Counted from the first letter of the stretch, positions 8,197-41,449 are shown. The stretch is 45,004 nt of DNA from Thermoleophilia bacterium (GCA_041648235.1 JBAZPK010000002.1:1-45004), one strand, 5' to 3'. The notes: generated from the sequence alone by a model not told the origin. Program-made: numbers and translations.

Positions 8197-12465
<4,269 letters not shown>

Positions 12466-32608: not shown

Positions 32609-32959
32609 ATGCGCCATCAGAAGTCAGGCCGCAAGTTCAACATGGCGCCCGACCAGCGCAAGGCGCTGCTTTCGGGCCTCGCCTGCCAGCTGCTCGAGCA
32701 CGAGAAGATCAAGACCGGCGTTGCGCGCGCCAAAGAGGTACGCCCGCTGGTCGAGGAGGTCATCACGCTTGGCAAGCGCGGCGACCTGCACGCTCGCCGG
32801 CTGGCCATCTCCATGCTGCGCAACAAGAAGATCGTCTACAAGCTGTTCAACGATGTGGCCCCGCGCTACGCCGAGCGCAAGGGCGGCTACACGCGCATCA
32901 TCAAGCTCGGGCCGCGCCCAGGGGACGGCAGCGAGCAGGCGTACATCGAGCTGGTGTAG
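32609..32959 (+). CDS. rplQ: 50S ribosomal protein L17 (bL17)
   Basis: ORF 32465-32959. Start taken as ATG32609 ([21 protein letters not shown]...), 1 nt after the rpoA stop. 116 aa. Confidence 0.96.
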
Positions 32960-32984: not shown

Positions 32985-33016
32985 AGGGGCGGGCGGCCGA
33001 AGGGCCGCCCGCCCCT
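32985..33016 (+). terminator. Perfect 14-bp hairpin after rplQ (terminator candidate)
   Basis: aggggcgggcggcc (32985-32998), loop gaag, ggccgcccgcccct (33003-33016). Reverse complement checked by hand. Confidence 0.6.
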
Positions 33017-33077: not shown

Positions 33078-33107
33078 TTGCACATACCCATGGGGGTATG
33101 CTAGGGT
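33078..33107 (+). promoter_or_regulatory. Candidate promoter of the Hdr/Qmo-like block (-35 TTGCAC, 18-nt spacer, extended -10 TGcTAGGGT), with an inverted repeat in the spacer
   Basis: Read directly: ttgcac 33078-33083, tgc 33099-33101, tagggt 33102-33107. The inverted repeat is CATACCC (33083-33089), N4, GGGTATG (33094-33100). Confidence 0.35.
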
Positions 33108-33243
33108 CTGCTTGTACCAGGAGACACAAGCGGTTCGGGCCCCGGGCAGATCCGGAGCGCGGAGCCGGATGTGAATCTCCCTCACAGGCATGCCTGGGGC
33201 GGGCGTGCGCACCAAAGCACGAGCGTTCAACGGCGACAAGGAG

Positions 33244-33507
33244 ATGGTCAGCATGACACCCGAAGAGCTCAACGCGATCCAGGCTGAGAAAGTGGTAGAC
33301 GCGCGCGGCACCTCGTGCCCCGGGCCGATCCTCGCCGCCAAGAAGGGCATCCCCGGCGTCTCGGTGGGCGGCGTCATGGAGGTCCAGGCGACCGACTCGG
33401 GAACGACCAAGGACCTCCCCGCGTGGTCCAAGAAGATGGGCCACGACTACCTCGGCGTGGTCGAGGAGCCCGGCTACATGCGCCTGTTCGTCAAGAAGAT
33501 GAAGTGA
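33244..33507 (+). CDS. TusA/SirA-family sulfur-carrier protein
   Basis: ORF 33190-33507. Start taken as ATG33244 after AAGGAG. 87 aa. The family hallmark VDARGTSCPGPIL (Cys-Pro-x-Pro) is present, with GGVMEVQATDSGTTKDLPAWSKKMGHDY downstream. Confidence 0.85.
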   Translation: MVSMTPEELNAIQAEKVVDARGTSCPGPILAAKKGIPGVSVGGVMEVQATDSGTTKDLPAWSKKMGHDYLGVVEEPGYMRLFVKKMK

Positions 33508-33509
33508 CG

Positions 33510-33947
33510 ATGGCTGAGGCAGCGGCAGAAGTGGGCCAGGCATACGACCCGCGGATCCTGGTCTTCAGCACCAACAACATATCCGACCCGGGAATCGACC
33601 TGGCGGGCAGCTCGCACATGCATTACTCGCCCAGGGTGATGGTGATCAACCTGCCCTGCACGAGTGCGGTCAAGCCGGGCTGGATCCTGTATGCCGTGGA
33701 GCAGGGCTTCGACGGCGTCTTCATCGCCGCCGACGGCGAGGAGTGCGCCTACCTGCCGGACTGCGCCGAGCGTACGTCCGGCATCATGAGCGATGCGCAG
33801 AAGCTGCTTGAGCAGAAGGGCTACGAGCCGCAGCGCGTGCGCATGGCCGCGATCTGCTCCGTCTGCGCGGAGCCTTTCACCAACTACATGCACGAGTACG
33901 CGACGTCCCTGACAGGCCTGGGACCGGCCCGGAAGGCGACCTCATGA
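33510..33947 (+). CDS. MvhD/FlpD-family iron-sulfur protein (HdrA partner), with an atypical Cys pattern
   Basis: In-frame ATG33510 within ORF 33315-33947, 2 nt after the TusA-like stop. 145 aa. The family-like pattern is ILVFS..N...PGIDLAG......Y.PRV.VI.LPC...V...WILYAVEQGFDGVFIAADGEECAY. Extra Cys occur in LPDC and AICSVC. Confidence 0.7.
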   Translation: MAEAAAEVGQAYDPRILVFSTNNISDPGIDLAGSSHMHYSPRVMVINLPCTSAVKPGWILYAVEQGFDGVFIAADGEECAYLPDCAERTSGIMSDAQKLLEQKGYEPQRVRMAAICSVCAEPFTNYMHEYATSLTGLGPARKATS

Positions 33948-36676
33948 AGTACGACGCCCTCGTGGTCGGCAGCGGCATCGGCGGGATGGAGTCGGCCCTC
34001 AAGCTCGGCGACATGGGCTACAAGGTGCTCGTCGTCGAGAAGGAGCCGAGCGTCGGCGGCAAGATGATCCTGCTCAGCAAGGTCTTCCCGACGCTCGACT
34101 GCGCCAGCTGCATCTCCACCCCCAAGATGGCCGCGACCATCCATCACCCCAACATCGACGTCCTCACCTACGCCCAGGTGGAGGGCATCCGCGGAGACGG
34201 TGACGGCTATCACGCCAAGATCCGCCAGAACCCGAAGTTCGTCGACGCCGCCGCCTGCACGGGCTGCCGCCAGTGTGAGATGGCCTGCAACGTCGCCGTC
34301 CCGGACGAGTACAACGCCGACATGGTGTCGCGGCGCGCAGCCTTCATCGCCTTCCCGCAGGCAGTGCCGAAGAAGGCGGTCATCAGCCGCGCCGGCGTCT
34401 CGCCGTGCACCTCTGAGTGCCCCGCGGGCATCAAGGCCCACGGCTACGTCGCTCGCGTGCGCAGCGGCGAGTACGATCAGGCCTTCGACCTGGTCCTGGA
34501 GACGACGCCGCTCGTCGGCAGCCTCGGGCGGGCGTGCTACGCGCCCTGCGAGGAGCAGTGCACGCGGGGCGAGCTCGAGGGACCGCTGCCGATCCGCCGC
34601 CTCAAGCGCTTCATCGCCGACCGGCGGTATGGCCAGGCGGAAGCCAAGGCCGTCGAGAAGCCCGAGCAGAATGGCATGACGGTCGCCGTCGTGGGCTCGG
34701 GGCCGGCCGGCCTCACGGCCGCCTGGCAGCTCGCCCGCAAAGGCTACGGTGTCAAGATCTTCGAGGCCGCGTCACAGGCGGGCGGCATGCTCCGCCTCGG
34801 CATCCCGGCGTACCGACTCCCGAACGACGTGATCGACGACGACGTTGCCAACGTGACGGCGATCGGCGTCGAGATCGAGACTGACTCGCGGGTGGAAGAC
34901 ATCGCGGGGCTCAAGGACGACGGCTTCGACGCCGTGCTCGTCGCGACCGGCACGCACAAGGCTGTGCAGCTGCGCGTGCCGGGCGAGGAGCTCGACGGCG
35001 TCCAGAGCGCCCTCACCTTCCTCGCCGACGTCAAGCTCGGCAAGCCTGTCGACCTCGCCGGAAAGCAGGTGCTCGTCGTGGGCGGCGGCAACGTCGCCAT
35101 CGACGCGGCGCGCACGGCGCGCCGCCTCGGCGCCGCGGCCGTCCACCAGGCCAGCCTCGAGTGCTGCGACGAGATGCCCGCCCACGACTTCGAGGTCGAG
35201 GAGGCCAAGGCCGAGGGCATCACGCTGCACGACGGCTGGGGCGTCGACCACTTCTCCGGGAACGGCCGAGTGCAGAGCGCGGAGCTCAAGGTCTGCTCCT
35301 GCGTCTTCAACCCCGAGGGCAGGTTCGCCCCCGAGTACGACGAGAGCAAGAAGCAGCGCGTCGACTGCGACGTCGTCATCGTCGCCGCCGGCATGGGCGC
35401 CGACACCGCCGCGTTCGGCCTCGAGACCAACGGCAACCGGACGCTCAAGGCCGACCCCGGCACCCTGCAGACGGCGGTGCCGCACGTCTTCGCCGCCGGT
35501 GACGTCGTCACCGGACCGACGATGATCACCACCGCCGTCGGCCAGGGCCGCCGCGCGGCCTTCATGATCGACCGCTACCTGCAGGGCGACGAGCTCGACT
35601 CGGCCGCCTTCGACGAGGCTCTGCCGGTCGTGGACCGAGCTGAGGTGCTCAAACGCCAGGACGTGTACGACCGGCGAGAGCCGCTCGAGCCCCACGCTGC
35701 CATGAACGCCTCGCCGACGGACTTCGCTGAGACCGAGGCGCCGATGACCGAGGAAGAAGCCTTCCTCGGCGCCGCCCGTTGCCTCGACTGCGGCATCTGC
35801 TCCGAGTGTCACGCCTGCGTCGACGCCTGCCCGGCGGACGCGATCAAGCTCGACATGCGCGGCGAGGACATCGAGGCGGACGTCGACGCGGTCGTGTTGG
35901 CCACAGGCTTCCGTCTGTTTCCCGCCGATGCCAAACCGGAATACGGCTACGGCCGCTACAAGAACGTCATCACCGGCATGCAGATGGACCGCCTGCTCGC
36001 CCCGACGCGGCCGTTCAACTCGGTCGTGCGGCCGGGCGACGGCAAGGTGCCGGACCGTATCGGCTACGTCATGTGCACCGGTTCCCGCGAGGCCCAGGTC
36101 GGCAACCCGCTCTGCTCGCGGATCTGCTGCATGTACTCCGTGAAGCACAACCAGCTGGTCATGGGTGCCCTGCCCCTCGCCGACGTGACCGTCCACTACA
36201 TGGACGTGCGCGCCGTGGGCAAGGGCTACGACGAGTTCTACCAGCAGGCCAAGGACATGGGCGCCATGTTCATCAAGGGTCGCGTCGCGAAGATCACCGA
36301 GAAGGACGACGGCGACCTCATCGTCCGCTACGAGGACATCGAGGGCGACGGCGGCATCGTCGAGGCCGAGTACGACATGGTCGTGCTCGCCGTCGGCGTG
36401 CAGCCCAACACCGAGGCGGCCGACCTGTTCGAGGCCGGCGCCCTCGGCCTCGACGAGTACTTCTACGTCGGCGAGGCCGACGAGGACCTCGACCCCGGCC
36501 GCACCAACCTGCCCGGGGTCTTCGTCGCCGGTTCGGCCTCGGGCGTCAAGGACATCCCCGACTCGATCCTTCACGCCGGCGCGGCCGTTGCTCAGGCCGC
36601 CGCGCACATCGAGAAGGCCCGGGCCGCGGACGCCGCCGGAGTACGGTCAGCCGCGAACGTGAAGGTGACAGCATGA
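33944..36676 (+). CDS. HdrA-family flavoprotein with a nested GltD/NfnB-like NAD(P)H:FAD/FeS module
   Basis: 910-aa ORF. Its ATG overlaps the upstream stop (ATGA). HdrA marks: N-terminal FAD fold VVGSGIGGMESALKLGDMGYKVLVVEKEPSVGGK, signature CTGSREAQVGNPLCSRICCMYS, and FeS motifs CTGCRQCEMAC and CSECHACVDACP. Residues ~150-548 look like the glutamate synthase small subunit/NfnB: GRACYAPCEEQC, VAVVGSGPAGL, GGMLRLGIPAYRLP, VLVVGGGNVAIDAAR, VFAAGDVVTGP. Confidence 0.8.
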   Translation: MKYDALVVGSGIGGMESALKLGDMGYKVLVVEKEPSVGGKMILLSKVFPTLDCASCISTPKMAATIHHPNIDVLTYAQVEGIRGDGDGYHAKIRQNPKFVDAAACTGCRQCEMACNVAVPDEYNADMVSRRAAFIAFPQAVPKKAVISRAGVSPCTSECPAGIKAHGYVARVRSGEYDQAFDLVLETTPLVGSLGRACYAPCEEQCTRGELEGPLPIRRLKRFIADRRYGQAEAKAVEKPEQNGMTVAVVGSGPAGLTAAWQLARKGYGVKIFEAASQAGGMLRLGIPAYRLPNDVIDDDVANVTAIGVEIETDSRVEDIAGLKDDGFDAVLVATGTHKAVQLRVPGEELDGVQSALTFLADVKLGKPVDLAGKQVLVVGGGNVAIDAARTARRLGAAAVHQASLECCDEMPAHDFEVEEAKAEGITLHDGWGVDHFSGNGRVQSAELKVCSCVFNPEGRFAPEYDESKKQRVDCDVVIVAAGMGADTAAFGLETNGNRTLKADPGTLQTAVPHVFAAGDVVTGPTMITTAVGQGRRAAFMIDRYLQGDELDSAAFDEALPVVDRAEVLKRQDVYDRREPLEPHAAMNASPTDFAETEAPMTEEEAFLGAARCLDCGICSECHACVDACPADAIKLDMRGEDIEADVDAVVLATGFRLFPADAKPEYGYGRYKNVITGMQMDRLLAPTRPFNSVVRPGDGKVPDRIGYVMCTGSREAQVGNPLCSRICCMYSVKHNQLVMGALPLADVTVHYMDVRAVGKGYDEFYQQAKDMGAMFIKGRVAKITEKDDGDLIVRYEDIEGDGGIVEAEYDMVVLAVGVQPNTEAADLFEAGALGLDEYFYVGEADEDLDPGRTNLPGVFVAGSASGVKDIPDSILHAGAAVAQAAAHIEKARAADAAGVRSAANVKVTA

Positions 36677-38412
36677 GCGCCCGCAAGATCGGCGTGTACG
36701 TCTGCCAGTGCGGCGGCAACATCGGCGACTACGTCGACGTCGACGAGGTCGTGGCCGCCGCCGAGAAGGAGCCGGGCGTGACCGTCGCCAAGACGGCGAT
36801 GTTCACCTGCTCCGACTCGACCCAGAGTGAGATCGTCGCCGACGCGCAGGAGCAGGGCCTCGACGGGCTCGTCATCGCCTCCTGCTCGCCCAAGCTCCAC
36901 ACCTACACCTTCCGCGACGTCGCCAGGCGCGCCGGCATGAACCCGTTCCAGTACACGCAGGTGAACGTCCGCGAGCAGTGCTCGTGGACGCACACCGACG
37001 ACCACGAGGGTGCGACCGAGAAGGCGGTGCGCCTCGTGCGCGCCGGTATCAACCGCACGCGCCTCACCGAGCCGCTCGAGCCGATCGTCGTCGAGACCAC
37101 GCCGAGGAGCCTCGTCGTCGGCGGCGGCATCGCCGGCCTGCGCGCGGCCCTCGGCCTCGCCGAGATCGGCCTCTCCGTCTTCCTTGTGGAGAAGGAGCCT
37201 CAGCTCGGCGGCTGGGTCGCCGGCTTCGGCGAGATGTACCCGCACGGGCGCAACGGCGCCGAGCTGATCGCCAAGCTGGAGGAGAAGGTGCGCGCGCACC
37301 CGGCGGTCACCGTCTTCACCAGCGCCGAGCTGGTCGCCAAGGGTGGCAGCTTCGGCAACTACGAGGTGACGGTCGCGATCCACGGCGAGCAGCTCGAGAC
37401 CATCCGCCTGGTCGTCGGCTCCATCGTCATCGCCACCGGCTTCGACACGTACCAGCCCGCCGCCGGCGAGCTCGGCTCTGGCCTGGACGGCGTCCTCACG
37501 ATCGCCGAGTTCAAGAAGCTGCTCGATGAGTCAGCCGGCCCCCTGCAGTACGGCGGCCGGCCCGTGAAGACCGTCGCCTACATCTACTGCGTCGGCAGCC
37601 GCCAGGGAGAGGGCGTCGAGGGCGGCAACACCTACTGCTCCCGCTACTGCTGCACCGCGGCCGTGCACGCCGCGACCCAGGTCGCCGACTTGCCTGCCAA
37701 AGTGCACCAATACCACTTCTACCGCGACATGCGGACCTACGGGAAGTACGAGCTTCTCTACGCCGAGGCGCTCGAGAGGGGCTCGGCGTTCGTCAAGTTC
37801 CCCGACGATGAGCCGCCGGCGGTGGAGAAGGACGCGAAGTCCGGCCGCCTCACGCTGACGGCGCGCGACCTGCTGTCCGAAGGCGAAGAGGTCGCGCTCA
37901 CCGCCGATCTCGTCGTTCTCGTCACCGGTATGGTCCCCCGCGAAAACGAGAGCCTGATCAGCGCGCTCAAGCTGCCCGTCGGGCAAAGCGGGTTCTTCAA
38001 CGAGATCCACCCCAAGCTCCGCCCGGTCGAAACGGTCGTGGACGGCGCCTACATCTGCGGCGCCTGTCAGGCGCCGCGGACCTCGTCCGAGGCGGTCGCC
38101 TCGGGGCTGGCGGCGGTGACCCAGAGCGCCGCCGTCCTCAAGCGCGGCTTCGCCGAGCTGGATCCGCTGGTGGCCACCGTCGACACCGACGCGTGCACCT
38201 GGTGCGGCGCCTGCGAGAACACCTGCCCGTACGCCGCGATCGCTCGCGAGCAGCTCGACGGCAAGGAAGTCGCCGTCATCTCCAGGACGGCCTGCAAGGG
38301 TTGCGGAGGCTGTGCCCCCGTGTGCCCCACGGACGCCATCGATCTGCAGGGCTACACCGACGCCCAGATCAAGGCCATGATCGACGGCATGATGGAGGTG
38401 GTGTGCCGATGA
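36673..38412 (+). CDS. HdrA-family flavoprotein (canonical architecture)
   Basis: In-frame ATG36673 within ORF 35779-38412, with an ATGA overlap to the upstream stop. 579 aa. N-terminal Cys-rich domain KIGVYVCQCGGNIGDYVD...ASCSPKLH. FAD fold LVVGGGIAGLRAALGLAEIGLSVFLVEKEPQLGG. Signature CVGSRQGEGVEGGNTYCSRYCCTAA. C-terminal 2x[4Fe-4S] motifs CTWCGACENTCP and CKGCGGCAPVCP. Confidence 0.85.
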   Translation: MSARKIGVYVCQCGGNIGDYVDVDEVVAAAEKEPGVTVAKTAMFTCSDSTQSEIVADAQEQGLDGLVIASCSPKLHTYTFRDVARRAGMNPFQYTQVNVREQCSWTHTDDHEGATEKAVRLVRAGINRTRLTEPLEPIVVETTPRSLVVGGGIAGLRAALGLAEIGLSVFLVEKEPQLGGWVAGFGEMYPHGRNGAELIAKLEEKVRAHPAVTVFTSAELVAKGGSFGNYEVTVAIHGEQLETIRLVVGSIVIATGFDTYQPAAGELGSGLDGVLTIAEFKKLLDESAGPLQYGGRPVKTVAYIYCVGSRQGEGVEGGNTYCSRYCCTAAVHAATQVADLPAKVHQYHFYRDMRTYGKYELLYAEALERGSAFVKFPDDEPPAVEKDAKSGRLTLTARDLLSEGEEVALTADLVVLVTGMVPRENESLISALKLPVGQSGFFNEIHPKLRPVETVVDGAYICGACQAPRTSSEAVASGLAAVTQSAAVLKRGFAELDPLVATVDTDACTWCGACENTCPYAAIAREQLDGKEVAVISRTACKGCGGCAPVCPTDAIDLQGYTDAQIKAMIDGMMEVVCR

Positions 38413-38681
38413 GCGCGACCGGCACTGAGCCAAGCCAGACGCCCATCCGGCACACGCGCGAGATCATCCGCGACGAGCAGTTCATGAGGGCCCGGATCCT
38501 CAAGGTGCTCGCCGCCGGGCCCCAGACCATCCCGGAGATCGCCGCCGCCGTCGGCAGGCCCAGCCACGAAGTCGTGTTCTGGGTGATGGGCCTGCGCAAG
38601 TACGGCTGGTTGGCCGAGATCAAGGAAGTCGACGACGAAGGGTACTTCCGCTATCAAACGGTTCCCAGAGAGGGGTCCTGA
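38409..38681 (+). CDS. Small (90-aa) winged-helix-turn-helix protein
   Basis: In-frame ATG38409 within ORF 38193-38681, with an ATGA overlap to the HdrA stop. The wHTH-like pattern is RARILKVLAAGPQTIPEIAAAVGRPSHEVVFWVMGLRKYGWLAEIKE..DEGYFRY. Confidence 0.6.
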   Translation: MSATGTEPSQTPIRHTREIIRDEQFMRARILKVLAAGPQTIPEIAAAVGRPSHEVVFWVMGLRKYGWLAEIKEVDDEGYFRYQTVPREGS

Positions 38682-38707
38682 GGGACCGCCGTGAGAGGAG
38701 ACAGCTC

Positions 38708-39190
38708 GTGGACACGACCAAGAAGACCATCATCCTGTTCAGCGGCGACTTCGACAAAGTCATGGCGGCCTTGATCATCGCCAACGGCGCCGCCGCCATG
38801 GGCGACGACGTCACCATCTTCTGCACCTTCTGGGGCCTCAACATCCTGCGCAAGACCGAGAAGGTCCAGACCGACGCCAAGAAGAGCACCCTGCAGTCGA
38901 TGTTCGGCAGGATGATGCCCAAGGGCACGAAGAAGCTCGGCCTCTCCAAGATGAACTTCGCCGGCGCCGGCAGCCCAATGATGAGGAAGGCCACCAAGGA
39001 CGCCGGCGGCATGTCGCTCGAGGAGCTCTTCGACAGCGCTCGGGAGCAGGGCGTGAAGTTCATCGCCTGCACGCTCTCCATGGACATCCTCGGCTTCAAG
39101 CAGGAAGAGCTCCTGGACGACATCGAGTACGCCGGCGTCGCCGCCTACCTTGGCGAAGCCGACGAAGCCAACGTCAACTTGTTCATCTAG
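38708..39190 (+). CDS. DsrE/DsrF-like (DrsE_2-type) protein
   Basis: 160-aa ORF. GTG start after GAGAGGAG. The family-like pattern is KTIILFSGDFDKVMAALIIANGAAAMGDDVTIFCTFWGLNILRK ... VKFIACTLSMDILG. Confidence 0.7.
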   Translation: MDTTKKTIILFSGDFDKVMAALIIANGAAAMGDDVTIFCTFWGLNILRKTEKVQTDAKKSTLQSMFGRMMPKGTKKLGLSKMNFAGAGSPMMRKATKDAGGMSLEELFDSAREQGVKFIACTLSMDILGFKQEELLDDIEYAGVAAYLGEADEANVNLFI

Positions 39191-39201
39191 GTCGGAGCAC
39201 G

Positions 39202-40338
39202 ATGGCTACAACAATCAATCCTGAGCTCGTCGACGAGCTCCGGGCATTCGGTGCCAAGGACGTCAGCAAGTGCTTCAATTGCGGCAACTGCTCGGCGGTG
39301 TGCGTGCAGGCGGACGGGGAGTACATACTCCCGCGTCGCCCCGTGCACGCCGTCCAGCTGGGGCTCGAGGACAAGCTCAAGGGCTCGCTCGAGCCCTGGC
39401 TCTGCTACTACTGCGGCGAGTGCTCGGAGCAGTGCCCGAAGGAGGCCGACCCCGCCGAGACGATGATGAGCATGCGCCGCTGGCTCACGTCCAAGTACGA
39501 CTTCAGCGGCATCGCAAGCCTCTTCTACCGCTCCTGGCGCTGGGAGGTGCTCGCCATCGTGCTGGCCGCCATCCTCACCGGTGTCGGTTTCATGCTGTTC
39601 GGGATGTCCCAGGGCAGCATCAGCGACTACGACGGCCCGAACGCCTTCTTGCCGAGCGCCAAGATCCATGCATTCGACTGGTCGATGGCGACGGTGCTTG
39701 TCGTCCTCCTGGGCATCAACGTCTCTCGCATGTGGCGCTTCGTCATGGGCGGCGACCGCGACCGCGCGCCGCTCAGCTCCTACGTCGCCGGCCTGTACAC
39801 GCTGCCGTACCACTTCTTCACGCAGATGAAGTTCCGGCGCTGCGAGCGCAGACGGCCGTGGGCCGTGCACCTGGCCCTCATGCTGAGCTACGTGACCATG
39901 CTCGTGCTCATCATGTTCTTCCTCCGCGAGATGGCGAGCGGCCCGTCCATCGACTGGCGGGTCCACCTGTTCGGGTACCTGGCGTCGGCGGGGCTCATCG
40001 TAGCCGTGGTCATCAATCTTCGTGGCCGCCTCAAGAAGGACTCGCCGCAGCACGCCCACTCGCACGAGTCTGACTGGATGTTCCTCATCCTGCTCCTGGT
40101 CGTCGCCACGACGGGCGTGCTGCAGCACATCCTCCACCGCTTCGGCCTCGACGCGGCCGCCAACGTGCTGTACGTCGTGCATCTCATGGGCGTCGTGCCG
40201 ATGCTCGTGCTCGAGGTGCCGTTCGGCAAGTGGTCGCACCTCGCCTACCGGCCCCTGGCCGCCTACTTCGTCCAGGTGCGCGTGCACGCCGAAGCGACGG
40301 CGACGAATCCGGAGGAGGCCCGCCCCGAGGCGGCGTGA
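39202..40338 (+). CDS. QmoC-like membrane protein: HdrC-like 2x[4Fe-4S] domain fused to a NarI/HdrE-like six-helix cytochrome b domain
   Basis: 378-aa ORF. N-terminal motifs CFNCGNCSAVC and CYYCGECSEQCP. Six hydrophobic helices follow, with conserved-looking His residues (AVHLAL, RVHLFGY, LQHILH, VVHLMG). The terminal motif PFGKWSHLAYRP is typical of the NarI/HdrE/DsrM family. Confidence 0.75.
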   Translation: MATTINPELVDELRAFGAKDVSKCFNCGNCSAVCVQADGEYILPRRPVHAVQLGLEDKLKGSLEPWLCYYCGECSEQCPKEADPAETMMSMRRWLTSKYDFSGIASLFYRSWRWEVLAIVLAAILTGVGFMLFGMSQGSISDYDGPNAFLPSAKIHAFDWSMATVLVVLLGINVSRMWRFVMGGDRDRAPLSSYVAGLYTLPYHFFTQMKFRRCERRRPWAVHLALMLSYVTMLVLIMFFLREMASGPSIDWRVHLFGYLASAGLIVAVVINLRGRLKKDSPQHAHSHESDWMFLILLLVVATTGVLQHILHRFGLDAAANVLYVVHLMGVVPMLVLEVPFGKWSHLAYRPLAAYFVQVRVHAEATATNPEEARPEAA

Positions 40339-40430
40339 GGCGGACCAGGGCGGGGCGGAGCTGAGCCGGCTGAGCCGCCCGGCGGTCGGCCTCGAGGCGG
40401 CCTGCCAGCCCTGACCGCGGCGGAACCGGC

Positions 40431-40459
40431 GCGCGACCCGCGCCTGGCGCGGGTCGCGC
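40431..40459 (+). terminator. Perfect 13-bp hairpin downstream of the QmoC-like gene (terminator candidate)
   Basis: gcgcgacccgcgc (40431-40443), loop ctg, gcgcgggtcgcgc (40447-40459). Reverse complement checked by hand. There is no T-tract. Confidence 0.5.
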
Positions 40460-40552: not shown

Positions 40553-41449
40553 ATGACCGCCCCGCCTGCGCACCCGGCCGCCTCCCCCGCCGACCCAGCC
40601 GCCGCGCCCGCCTTCCCGGCGGCGCGGCTCCTCGACGTCTCCGGGCTCCACTACCGCTACCCTGGGGCACCGGCCGACGCACTGGCCGGCCTCGACCTGC
40701 AGGCCGCCGAGGGCGAGTTCGTGGCCGTGGTGGGGGCGAACGGCTCGGGTAAGTCCACGCTCGCGCGCCTGCTGGGCGGCCTGCAGAAGCCCACCGCCGC
40801 CCGCCGTGCGCTGGCCTGCGGCCACGACCTGCTGACCGAAGAGGGGCGCCTCGTGGCGCGCCGGGACGTGGGCGTGCTCTTCCAGAACCCCGAGAACCAG
40901 CTCGTCGCCGAGTGCGTGGAGGAGGACGTGGCGTTCGGCCTCGAGAACCTCTCCTGGCCGGCGCCGGAGATCCGCCGGCGTGTGGACGAGATGCTCTCCC
41001 GCTTCGGCCTCGTGAGTCTGCGGCGGCGTGAGCCGCACCTGCTCTCGGGCGGCCAGAAGCAGCGCACGGCGCTGGCCGGCGTACTGGCCATCCCGCGCCG
41101 GGCGCTGGTGCTCGACGAACCCACGGCGATGCTCGACCCGGCCGGCCGCCGCGAGGTGCTCGCGGCCGTCGACGGCCTTCGTGCCGAGGGACTGGCGATC
41201 GTCTTCATCACCCAGGAGATGGACGAGGTGGTGGGCGCCGACCGGGTGATCGCGCTGGAACGCGGCACGGAGGTGTACGCCGGCCCTCCCCAGGGGCTGT
41301 TCGACGATGTGCAGCTCGTGCGCCGGCTGCGCCTTGGCCTGCCGGCGTCGGGCGAGCTGGCCTTGGCGCTCGCGGCGCGGGGCCGCCGCCTTGCCAGCTT
41401 GCCGCTGACCCTGGACGACTTGCTCGACGAGCTCGGCGGGCCCAGATGA
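40553..41449 (+). CDS. ecfA1: Energy-coupling factor (ECF) transporter ATPase
   Basis: 298-aa ORF with Walker A GANGSGKST, signature LSGGQKQR and Walker B LVLDEPT. It is the first of two tandem ABC ATPases followed by ecfT. Confidence 0.88.
   Translation: MTAPPAHPAASPADPAAAPAFPAARLLDVSGLHYRYPGAPADALAGLDLQAAEGEFVAVVGANGSGKSTLARLLGGLQKPTAARRALACGHDLLTEEGRLVARRDVGVLFQNPENQLVAECVEEDVAFGLENLSWPAPEIRRRVDEMLSRFGLVSLRRREPHLLSGGQKQRTALAGVLAIPRRALVLDEPTAMLDPAGRREVLAAVDGLRAEGLAIVFITQEMDEVVGADRVIALERGTEVYAGPPQGLFDDVQLVRRLRLGLPASGELALALAARGRRLASLPLTLDDLLDELGGPR

Follow-up and report, generated by a model that had tools for sequence, protein, structure and literature searches.

The DNA analyzed here is a stretch of 45,004 nucleotides (nt) from a Thermoleophilia bacterium (GCA_041648235.1 JBAZPK010000002.1:1-45004), referred to below as the window, which represents nearly all of its 45,059-bp source contig. 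Between rplQ and ecfA1 it carries a block of seven plus-strand genes (33244-40338) for HdrA-type flavoproteins, a QmoC-like membrane protein, and predicted sulfur carriers. We favor, with moderate confidence, the view that this block is a complete operon and constitutes the quinone-linked variant of a widespread, uncharacterized, and probably sulfane-sulfur-regulated NAD(P)H-linked Hdr/Qmo-type complex. The genes, with protein lengths in amino acids (aa) and iron-sulfur (FeS) and flavin adenine dinucleotide (FAD) domains, were as follows.

33244-33507, + strand: tusA, sulfur carrier (PF01206, 4e-18, 65.5 bits against a cut-off of 28.6)
33510-33947, + strand: mvhD-like gene, [2Fe-2S] electron-transfer protein of 145 aa (PF02662, FlpD/MvhD, 1.2e-28)
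33944-36676, + strand: hdrL, 910 aa (Pyr_redox_2; Fer4_20; HdrA2, 1e-129, in two stretches; GltD-like NAD(P)-binding family, 1.6e-133)
36673-38412, + strand: hdrA, 579 aa (HdrA2, 5e-139; N-terminal FeS, FAD, and C-terminal 2x[4Fe-4S] domains)
38409-38681, + strand: 90-aa winged-helix protein, start overlapping the hdrA stop (ATGA), with no Cys and no Pfam family
38708-39190, + strand: DsrE2B-like sulfur-carrier protein (DrsE_2; PF13686, 2.4e-61, 206.7 bits against a cut-off of 25)
39202-40338, + strand: QmoC-like membrane subunit, 378 aa (HdrC-like 2x[4Fe-4S] domain and six predicted transmembrane helices)

All seven open reading frames reported by the first-pass annotation were confirmed in position and strand, and profile searches supported its assignments to the TusA, MvhD, HdrA, GltD, DsrE, and QmoC families, with QmoC remaining below its equivalog cut-off. 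The window has a GC content of ~64-77% and is essentially a single long array of translation and transcription genes (rplA, rplL, rpoB, rpoC, fusA, tuf ... secY, rpsK, rpsD, rpoA, rplQ). The flanks of the block were as that annotation described them, with rpoA and rplQ (32609-32959) upstream and the ecfA1-ecfA2-ecfT-truA series starting at 40553 downstream. The ATGA junctions were found at 33944, 36673, and 38409, and these three overlaps suggest translational coupling within the block, as expected of an operon. The codon usage was also host-like as claimed: codon frequencies of the block and of the translation genes correlated with r = 0.946, and the GC content at third codon positions was extreme (0.88-0.96) in all genes tested. 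A recent horizontal insertion is not supported by the composition, which does not mark the block as a newcomer. Apart from the block, the window content checked was translation and transcription apparatus, in agreement with the earlier statement that no CCG-domain, Apr, or Dsr partner is present. With thresholds of E 1e-5 and half-length coverage, tblastn searches of the window with HdrB and HdrC queries returned nothing, and no Apr, Sat, or Dsr gene was found there.

The block belongs to a large operon family. Scanning one genome per species yielded 381 relatives, of which the best 80 loci were inspected. These 80 all came from metagenome-assembled genomes, mainly of Thermoleophilia, with other Actinomycetota, some Bacillota, Chloroflexia, and others. 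HdrL by itself had matches at ≥80% identity in over 100 protein clusters (clustered at 90% identity), which the sources mostly name "Thermoleophilia bacterium". The genes tusA, mvhD, hdrL, hdrA, and that of the small winged-helix protein formed a constant core, and gene order was conserved in the 80 loci. The downstream module alternated: it encoded either a 103-aa HdrC with a 323-aa CCG-domain protein, or a QmoC-like protein. Sixty loci with complete flanks were classified by tblastn; 38/60 were of the CCG type (HdrC and CCG protein), 20/60 were of the QmoC type, and 0/60 had CCG and QmoC in one operon. TusA was present in 56/60 of these loci, a DsrE-type protein in 54/60, and the small winged-helix protein in 55/60; TusA and the DsrE-type protein were each present in 18 of the 20 QmoC-type loci. 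The first-pass annotation had presented the block as a distinct HdrB-less complex; it is not an isolated case but a minority variant of a family whose majority carries HdrC and a CCG protein. In a neighbor-joining tree of HdrL, computed without support values, the QmoC type fell into at least three separate clades, which indicates that the exchange of QmoC and CCG modules happened repeatedly. Cofactor Cys and His residues were conserved across 23-84 relatives.

In the majority variant, the CCG protein (L001:15085-16056 and 47 other CCG-type loci) had five conserved Cys and a single CX34CCX33CXXC motif in its C-terminal half, and it scored weakly against the TfrB, LdhH, and DsrK models. Judged by this motif, it is not a standard two-cluster HdrB, unlike the HdrB of methanogens. 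In one genome, a divergent second hdrL-hdrA-small-qmoC cluster (L022:19372-23419, - strand; QmoC 31% and HdrA 42% identical to those of the window) was observed beside a CCG-type operon, so that the two types can coexist in one genome.

The position next to rplQ proved to be a lineage feature and not part of the system. The notion that the block always sits there was not sustained, since only one other locus among the 80, L038, shared the rplQ-ecfA1 site; neighborhoods were unrelated in the closest QmoC relative (90% identity) and in other QmoC-type loci. L038 (8300-17100; uncultured Actinomycetes MFD09964.bin.1.366) carries an ArsR gene and a CCG-type operon in the rplQ-ecfA1 slot, and its rplQ end and terminator are nearly identical to those of the window. 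Nucleotide identity between the two was 88% in the upstream flank, 78% from tusA to the small gene, and 89% in dsrE. It seems that between L038 and the window an exchange in place has affected both the regulator and the terminal module.

Dissection of the flavoproteins gave the predicted NAD(P)H link. The first-pass annotation described the 910-aa protein (HdrL) as an HdrA with a nested GltD/NfnB-like module, and profiles and alignment upheld this anatomy. The GltD-like match spans residues 144-649, and HdrL residues 4-149 and 614-892 align with residues 145-290 and 288-568, respectively, of Methanothermobacter wolfeii HdrA (5odc_A). The alignment therefore places a GltD-like module of ~460 residues inside the inserted ferredoxin domain of an HdrA-type protein. 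This GltD/NfnB-like module is predicted to hold FeS clusters, FAD, and an NAD(P)H site. HdrL lacks the N-terminal domain and the C-terminal ferredoxin domain of HdrA, and it keeps the conserved FPT(L/N)DCxxC pair as FPTLDC53ASC56, equivalent to Cys194/Cys197; the CxGSR...CSxxCC motif is likewise conserved. The 579-aa protein had been called a canonical HdrA. It contains the CxGSR...CSxxCC cluster motif within a conserved Cys pattern, but comparison with 5odc_A showed that both the inserted ferredoxin domain and the Cys194/Cys197 pair are missing from it, so "canonical" does not fit. HdrA supplies the N- and C-terminal FeS domains absent from HdrL, and HdrL keeps the insert and the Cys pair absent from HdrA. 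From their sequences the two look like complementary halves, which suggests a heterodimer. Three flavins are predicted to be available in the complex. As a separate observation, the NCBIfam model NF045663 (diclust_near_Sec, fused, 759 aa) partly matched both HdrL (3.7e-53) and the L001 CCG protein (5e-13), and a single-chain GltD-HdrC-CCG relative accordingly seems to exist elsewhere.

The predicted quinone link would be provided by the QmoC-like protein. Its match to the NCBIfam qmoC model covered positions 5-358 of 360, essentially full length (2.4e-51), with 175 bits against a cut-off of 300, and the HdrC of 7bkb matched it at 4e-10. Eight FeS Cys, Cys214, and His156/223/286/327/346 were conserved even in relatives at ~30% identity. 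An AlphaFold2 model had six long membrane helices, and by the positive-inside rule applied to charged loops the N-terminal FeS domain is predicted to be cytoplasmic. A fold search with this model gave no match at E ≤ 0.001 (NarI and EtfD appeared weakly), and the cytochrome b assignment is therefore based on the NCBIfam match and the conserved His. With the GltD-like module at one end and the QmoC-like subunit at the other, the earlier proposal that the complex is linked to NAD(P)H and to the quinone pool appears reasonable.

The link to sulfur carriers that had been proposed also held. The catalytic Cys25 of TusA, in a CPGP motif, was invariant in 54 relatives, and Cys121 of the DsrE-like protein was invariant in 46. 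TusA matched 1pav_A best among solved structures, with TusA 3lvj_C matching as well; the corresponding NCBIfam equivalog was not reached (42.8 against a cut-off of 78). Its start at 33253 is more probable than that at 33244 because of the ribosome-binding-site spacing and the length of 83 aa in relatives. The closest solved chains to the DsrE-like protein were 3pnx_A (8.6e-38) and the DsrE2B protein 2qs7 (3.7e-15), and the NCBIfam DsrE2 equivalog was again not reached (86.6 bits, cut-off 210). TusA and the DsrE-like protein are accordingly predicted sulfur carriers. The MvhD-like protein encoded between tusA and hdrL has five conserved Cys.

The 90-aa winged-helix protein is a marker of the operon family. 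By sequence it gave a weak match to HTH_20 alone. Its AlphaFold2 model (pLDDT 86.6) had winged-helix topology, and Foldseek retrieved winged helix-turn-helix domains of SmtB, MarR, and Zalpha with a probability of 1.0 and E ~1e-3. Its 466 homologs (329 cluster representatives at 50% identity) had essentially no Pfam assignment and were mostly unnamed by their sources.

We further analyzed the ends of the block for signals of transcription and control. The following elements were found.

32985-33016, + strand: GC-rich hairpin with a perfect 14-bp stem and a 4-nt loop, directly 3' of rplQ (inverted-repeat search)
33078-33107, + strand: promoter-like element, TTGCAC (33078-33083), an 18-nt spacer, and TAGGGT (33102-33107), read from the sequence
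33084-33099, strandless: perfect palindrome ATACCCATGGGGGTAT, a CsoR/CstR-type operator within the promoter spacer, between the TTGCAC and TAGGGT hexamers
40431-40459, + strand: GC-rich hairpin with perfect 14-bp arms, after qmoC; candidate operon terminator

The first-pass annotation had the block bracketed by perfect hairpins and preceded by its own promoter-like element. Both 14-bp hairpins are real and perfect, but the upstream one does not bound the block. L038 has the same hairpin directly after rplQ, and the L038 and window sequences diverge beyond it, so this hairpin is the rplQ terminator. The downstream hairpin is not followed by a T-run and was missed by the terminator scan. The promoter-like element can be read as TTGCAC-N18-TAGGGT and is plausible only; a strict σ70 consensus scan was silent, and the consensus promoter/terminator scan returned nothing relevant at the block ends. 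Covariance models from Rfam, run on the block and its leader, gave no match near the gathering score, and hence no riboswitch or known leader RNA was found.

The palindrome ATACCCATGGGGGTAT was unique in the window and had no match in any of 100 shuffles (0/100). It agrees with the core of ATACCCTTATGGGGTAT, the cst operator of Streptococcus mitis, which is bound by the persulfide sensor CstR (PMC8643695). Similar sites were present upstream of the operon in L016, L019, L020, L025, L030, L076, and L081. L039 carries a CsoR-family gene (8728-8994, - strand) divergent from tusA, with an imperfect ATACCCCCGTATGGT site between the two genes. The encoded regulator has Cys36 and Cys65 and a Gly at the position of the copper-ligand His, and is hence CstR-like, CstR having two Cys without the copper-ligand His and leaving its DNA when persulfidated; among the loci, such a gene was found next to tusA only here. 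Taken together, the operator and the CstR-like gene of L039 point to control by sulfane sulfur. In the window, tblastn with two CsoR/CstR queries detected no CsoR-family gene. An ArsR/SmtB regulator was encoded directly upstream in 33/60 complete loci and was absent from the window. By sequence, the solved matches of these ArsR-type regulators included HlyU, BigR, and SqrR along with SmtB, NolR, and other ArsR-family metal sensors. Known persulfide sensors are thus found among the regulator types seen in this family. The palindrome may itself be a site for an ArsR-type regulator, being present upstream of arsR in L016, L020, and L025 as well; its sequence type is CsoR/CstR. We would expect that a CsoR/CstR-family protein encoded elsewhere probably represses the operon of the window and that sulfane sulfur induces it. 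Two upstream regions are recorded here as side observations: in L019 (9023-9096) the operon follows an apparent tRNA gene and a terminator, and in L030 (8960-9050) the DNA just 5' of the operator would encode an ArsR-like ELCVCDV motif, which may be the 3' end of a regulator gene or what is left of one.

The flanks of the relatives were searched for a partner enzyme. No family recurred in more than 15 of the 80 loci, and a universal partner was thus not found among them. The recurrent families included an apparent transporter (not annotated), TrmO_N, Nitro_FeMo-Co, MoaE, DUF1847, PadR, and MMPL, together with a second DsrE type and an SQR-like flavoprotein. LbpA was not among the ten recurrent neighbor families annotated by Pfam, and no search specific to LbpA was run. 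A flavoprotein of ~480 aa, encoded near distant CCG-type operons (L055:2885-4351 and five further loci), gave a weak match, well short of the cut-off, to type III sulfide:quinone reductase (E 4.5e-15), and these operons have a different DsrE type (PF02635), upstream of tusA. A cluster often lies downstream of the operon (L001:17524-21359, L002:10720-14679, L087:3998-7663), with genes for DUF5320, a small ferredoxin, two MinD/CbiA-type FeS ATPases, and radical-SAM and Nitro_FeMo-Co proteins, and often accompanied by TrmO_N, MoaE, and DUF1847 genes.

The domain content allows an order of electron transfer to be proposed. HdrL and HdrA would pair as a heterodimer in the manner of QmoA and QmoB. 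Electrons would pass from NAD(P)H to the GltD FAD, through FeS clusters to the HdrL and HdrA flavins and on to the C-terminal clusters of HdrA, and from there through the QmoC clusters and two b hemes to menaquinone. Since relatives replace QmoC with a soluble HdrC and a CCG protein, that slot after the HdrA C-terminal clusters, which either module would occupy, looks like an exchangeable high-potential end. TusA and the DsrE2B-like protein may deliver persulfide sulfur to the complex or another partner, or take it away. Both carriers are kept in the two variants, and the substrate is therefore unlikely to be handled by the CCG protein only; a handover for reduction at the complex has no identifiable catalytic site here and stays speculation. 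With three predicted flavins, bifurcation or confurcation is possible.

Several points weigh against the view of a sulfane-sulfur-regulated, quinone-linked complex. The evidence is confined to a window that is nearly the whole contig, all 80 inspected relatives are metagenome-assembled genomes, and every member of the family is known from sequence alone. The operator appears to fit a copper-sensing CsoR as well as a persulfide-sensing CstR, the window holds no regulator gene, and in most relatives the regulator is of the ArsR type. A regulatory role, instead of that of a subunit, is conceivable for the small winged-helix protein. The QmoC-like protein falls below the NCBI equivalog cut-off and has no significant fold match, and its b hemes are predicted. 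In the QmoC variant a catalytic site for a sulfur substrate is not recognizable, and the proposed role of TusA and the DsrE-like protein derives from association.

Comparison with known systems showed familiar modules in an arrangement for which no description was found in the full-text literature searched, the coverage of which was incomplete. The first-pass statement that the composition does not match HdrABC-Mvh, Flx-Hdr, sHdr, or Qmo-Apr agrees with this comparison, since each of the nearest systems has defining features that the block lacks. The HdrL-MvhD pair and, for Qmo, the replacement of QmoC by HdrBC are already known. The name HdrL was given in 2009 to an HdrA/glutamate-synthase fusion of Desulfobacterium autotrophicum with an NAD(P)H site, its genes being followed by mvhD (Strittmatter et al. 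2009, PMC2702500). The block shares this fusion beside mvhD. The D. autotrophicum loci differ in being linked to dsrABC, fdh, and other hdr genes, and some encode selenoproteins; the set of TusA, DsrE, winged-helix protein, and QmoC is not described there.

The sulfur-oxidizing-type sHdr system resembles the block in associating an Hdr-type complex with TusA and DsrE-family sulfur transferases, to which it is genetically tied, and it is under ArsR-type regulation. However, sHdr has sHdrB1/B2, sHdrC1/C2, and always a lipoate-binding protein, and it lacks an NAD(P)H module, MvhD, and QmoC; the block has these last three and no CCG protein. FlxABCD-HdrABC and MvhAGD-HdrABC share the path from an input module through an MvhD-type protein and the HdrA flavin to an HdrC-type di-cluster protein, and their solved HdrA structures align well with the flavoproteins of the block. 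In contrast to these systems, the input module of the block is fused into HdrA, and the HdrA functions are split over two polypeptides. In methanogen HdrABC a single HdrA has the N-terminal domain, the ferredoxin insert, the C-terminal ferredoxin domain, and Cys197, and HdrB has two CCG motifs; no such HdrB is present in the window, and its place is taken by QmoC in the block and by a single-motif CCG protein in relatives. The cst operons of Firmicutes, controlled by CstR, contain TusA- and DsrE-type sulfur carriers and share with the block the operator core ATACCC-N4/5-GGGGTAT in the promoter and an encoded TusA-type carrier. They encode persulfide dioxygenase, sulfide:quinone reductase, or CoA-persulfide reductase, but not an Hdr/Qmo complex, and no cstR gene was found in the window. 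QmoABC resembles the block in having two HdrA-related FAD/FeS flavoproteins (both the 910-aa and the 579-aa protein match HdrA models and solved chains) and an MvhD-type module. The QmoC of Qmo systems fuses an HdrC-like FeS domain to an HdrE-like di-heme membrane domain, and the QmoC-like protein of the block, with its predicted cytochrome b domain, is a putative counterpart. According to the literature, qmoC is absent in some Gram-positive sulfate reducers. The alternation of QmoC and HdrC/CCG modules between the relatives of the block is a further likeness. HdrBC takes the place of QmoC in Gram-positive sulfate reducers that lack qmoC. QmoB, unlike the flavoproteins here, has an MvhD-like domain fused to it, and in the block MvhD is a separate protein encoded upstream. 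The operon family is thus real, widespread, and uncharacterized, but it is built of familiar modules and is less anomalous than "HdrB-less" implies.

Other explanations of the operon differ in the role that they give to sulfur. Tentatively, the core may be a new flavin-based bifurcating or confurcating family that couples NAD(P)H to an exchangeable high-potential partner, either menaquinone via QmoC or a protein-bound per- or trisulfide via the single-cluster CCG protein, with TusA/DsrE2 sulfane sulfur as the physiological substrate. It is also conceivable, if unlikely, that the complex reduces or oxidizes a TusA- or DsrE-bound persulfide without any CCG protein, by flavin-based bifurcation or confurcation among NAD(P)H, menaquinone, and sulfur. 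The retention of carriers with invariant catalytic Cys in 18/20 QmoC-type loci, regulator types that include persulfide sensors, the three flavins, and the extra Cys214 of QmoC, invariant and in a cytoplasmic loop, would all suit such a reaction. On the other hand, none of the known sites for reducing a persulfide or disulfide was seen, neither a CCG motif nor a redox-active CxxC pair beyond the cluster ligands, and the CCG protein of relatives lies exactly at the QmoC slot, as expected of an exchangeable electron sink and not of a site for a common substrate. By established redox potentials, moreover, menaquinol is too weak a reductant for a persulfide unless a further reaction drives it.

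Rather unlikely is redox balancing, in which NAD(P)H oxidation would reduce menaquinone, possibly with ferredoxin as a low-potential co-acceptor in the manner of EtfABCX/Fix, and TusA and DsrE would be accessory members of a co-regulated stress operon. In favor of this, an unbroken series of cofactors connects the NAD(P)H site with the membrane domain and needs no sulfur protein, codon usage is like that of highly expressed genes, and EtfABCX offers a precedent for bifurcation from NADH to ferredoxin and menaquinone (PMC10734219). Yet tusA comes first and dsrE lies inside the operon in nearly all relatives, which span several phyla, and such constancy would be difficult to account for in bystanders. 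In addition, the exit clusters reside in an HdrA from which the ferredoxin insert, the part generally associated with the low-potential branch, has been lost. An ordinary QmoABC serving an AprAB encoded elsewhere, in sulfate reduction or sulfite oxidation, would account for the two HdrA-type flavoproteins, the MvhD module, and QmoC, a name that the JGI annotation gives to many of the homologs, but it is very improbable, in that no Apr, Sat, or Dsr gene occurs in the window or among the annotated recurrent neighbor families, no flanking family recurs in more than 15 of ~80 loci, the 175 bits of QmoC lie below the 300-bit equivalog cut-off, and described Qmo systems have neither the nested GltD insertion with its NAD(P)H site nor TusA, DsrE2B-like, and small winged-helix genes.

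Hdr/Qmo-type complexes are central to anaerobic energy conservation, and the partners and mechanism of Qmo are still debated. The operon family offers a natural experiment, in which one flavoprotein core is joined at some loci to a membrane subunit linked to quinone and at others to a soluble CCG protein, with sulfur carriers and a separate NAD(P)H input retained in both variants. Concrete targets for structural work are the split HdrA architecture and the small winged-helix protein. Members of the family are spread over hundreds of species-level genomes, from uncultured Thermoleophilia and their relatives in soil, peat, and lake sediment, so that what the complex does is relevant to sulfur and redox cycling in these habitats. 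If the core is indeed a new bifurcating family, it would represent an unrecognized sulfur-linked energy or redox metabolism in abundant uncultured Actinomycetota of soil, peat, and lake, and in some Chloroflexota and Bacillota.

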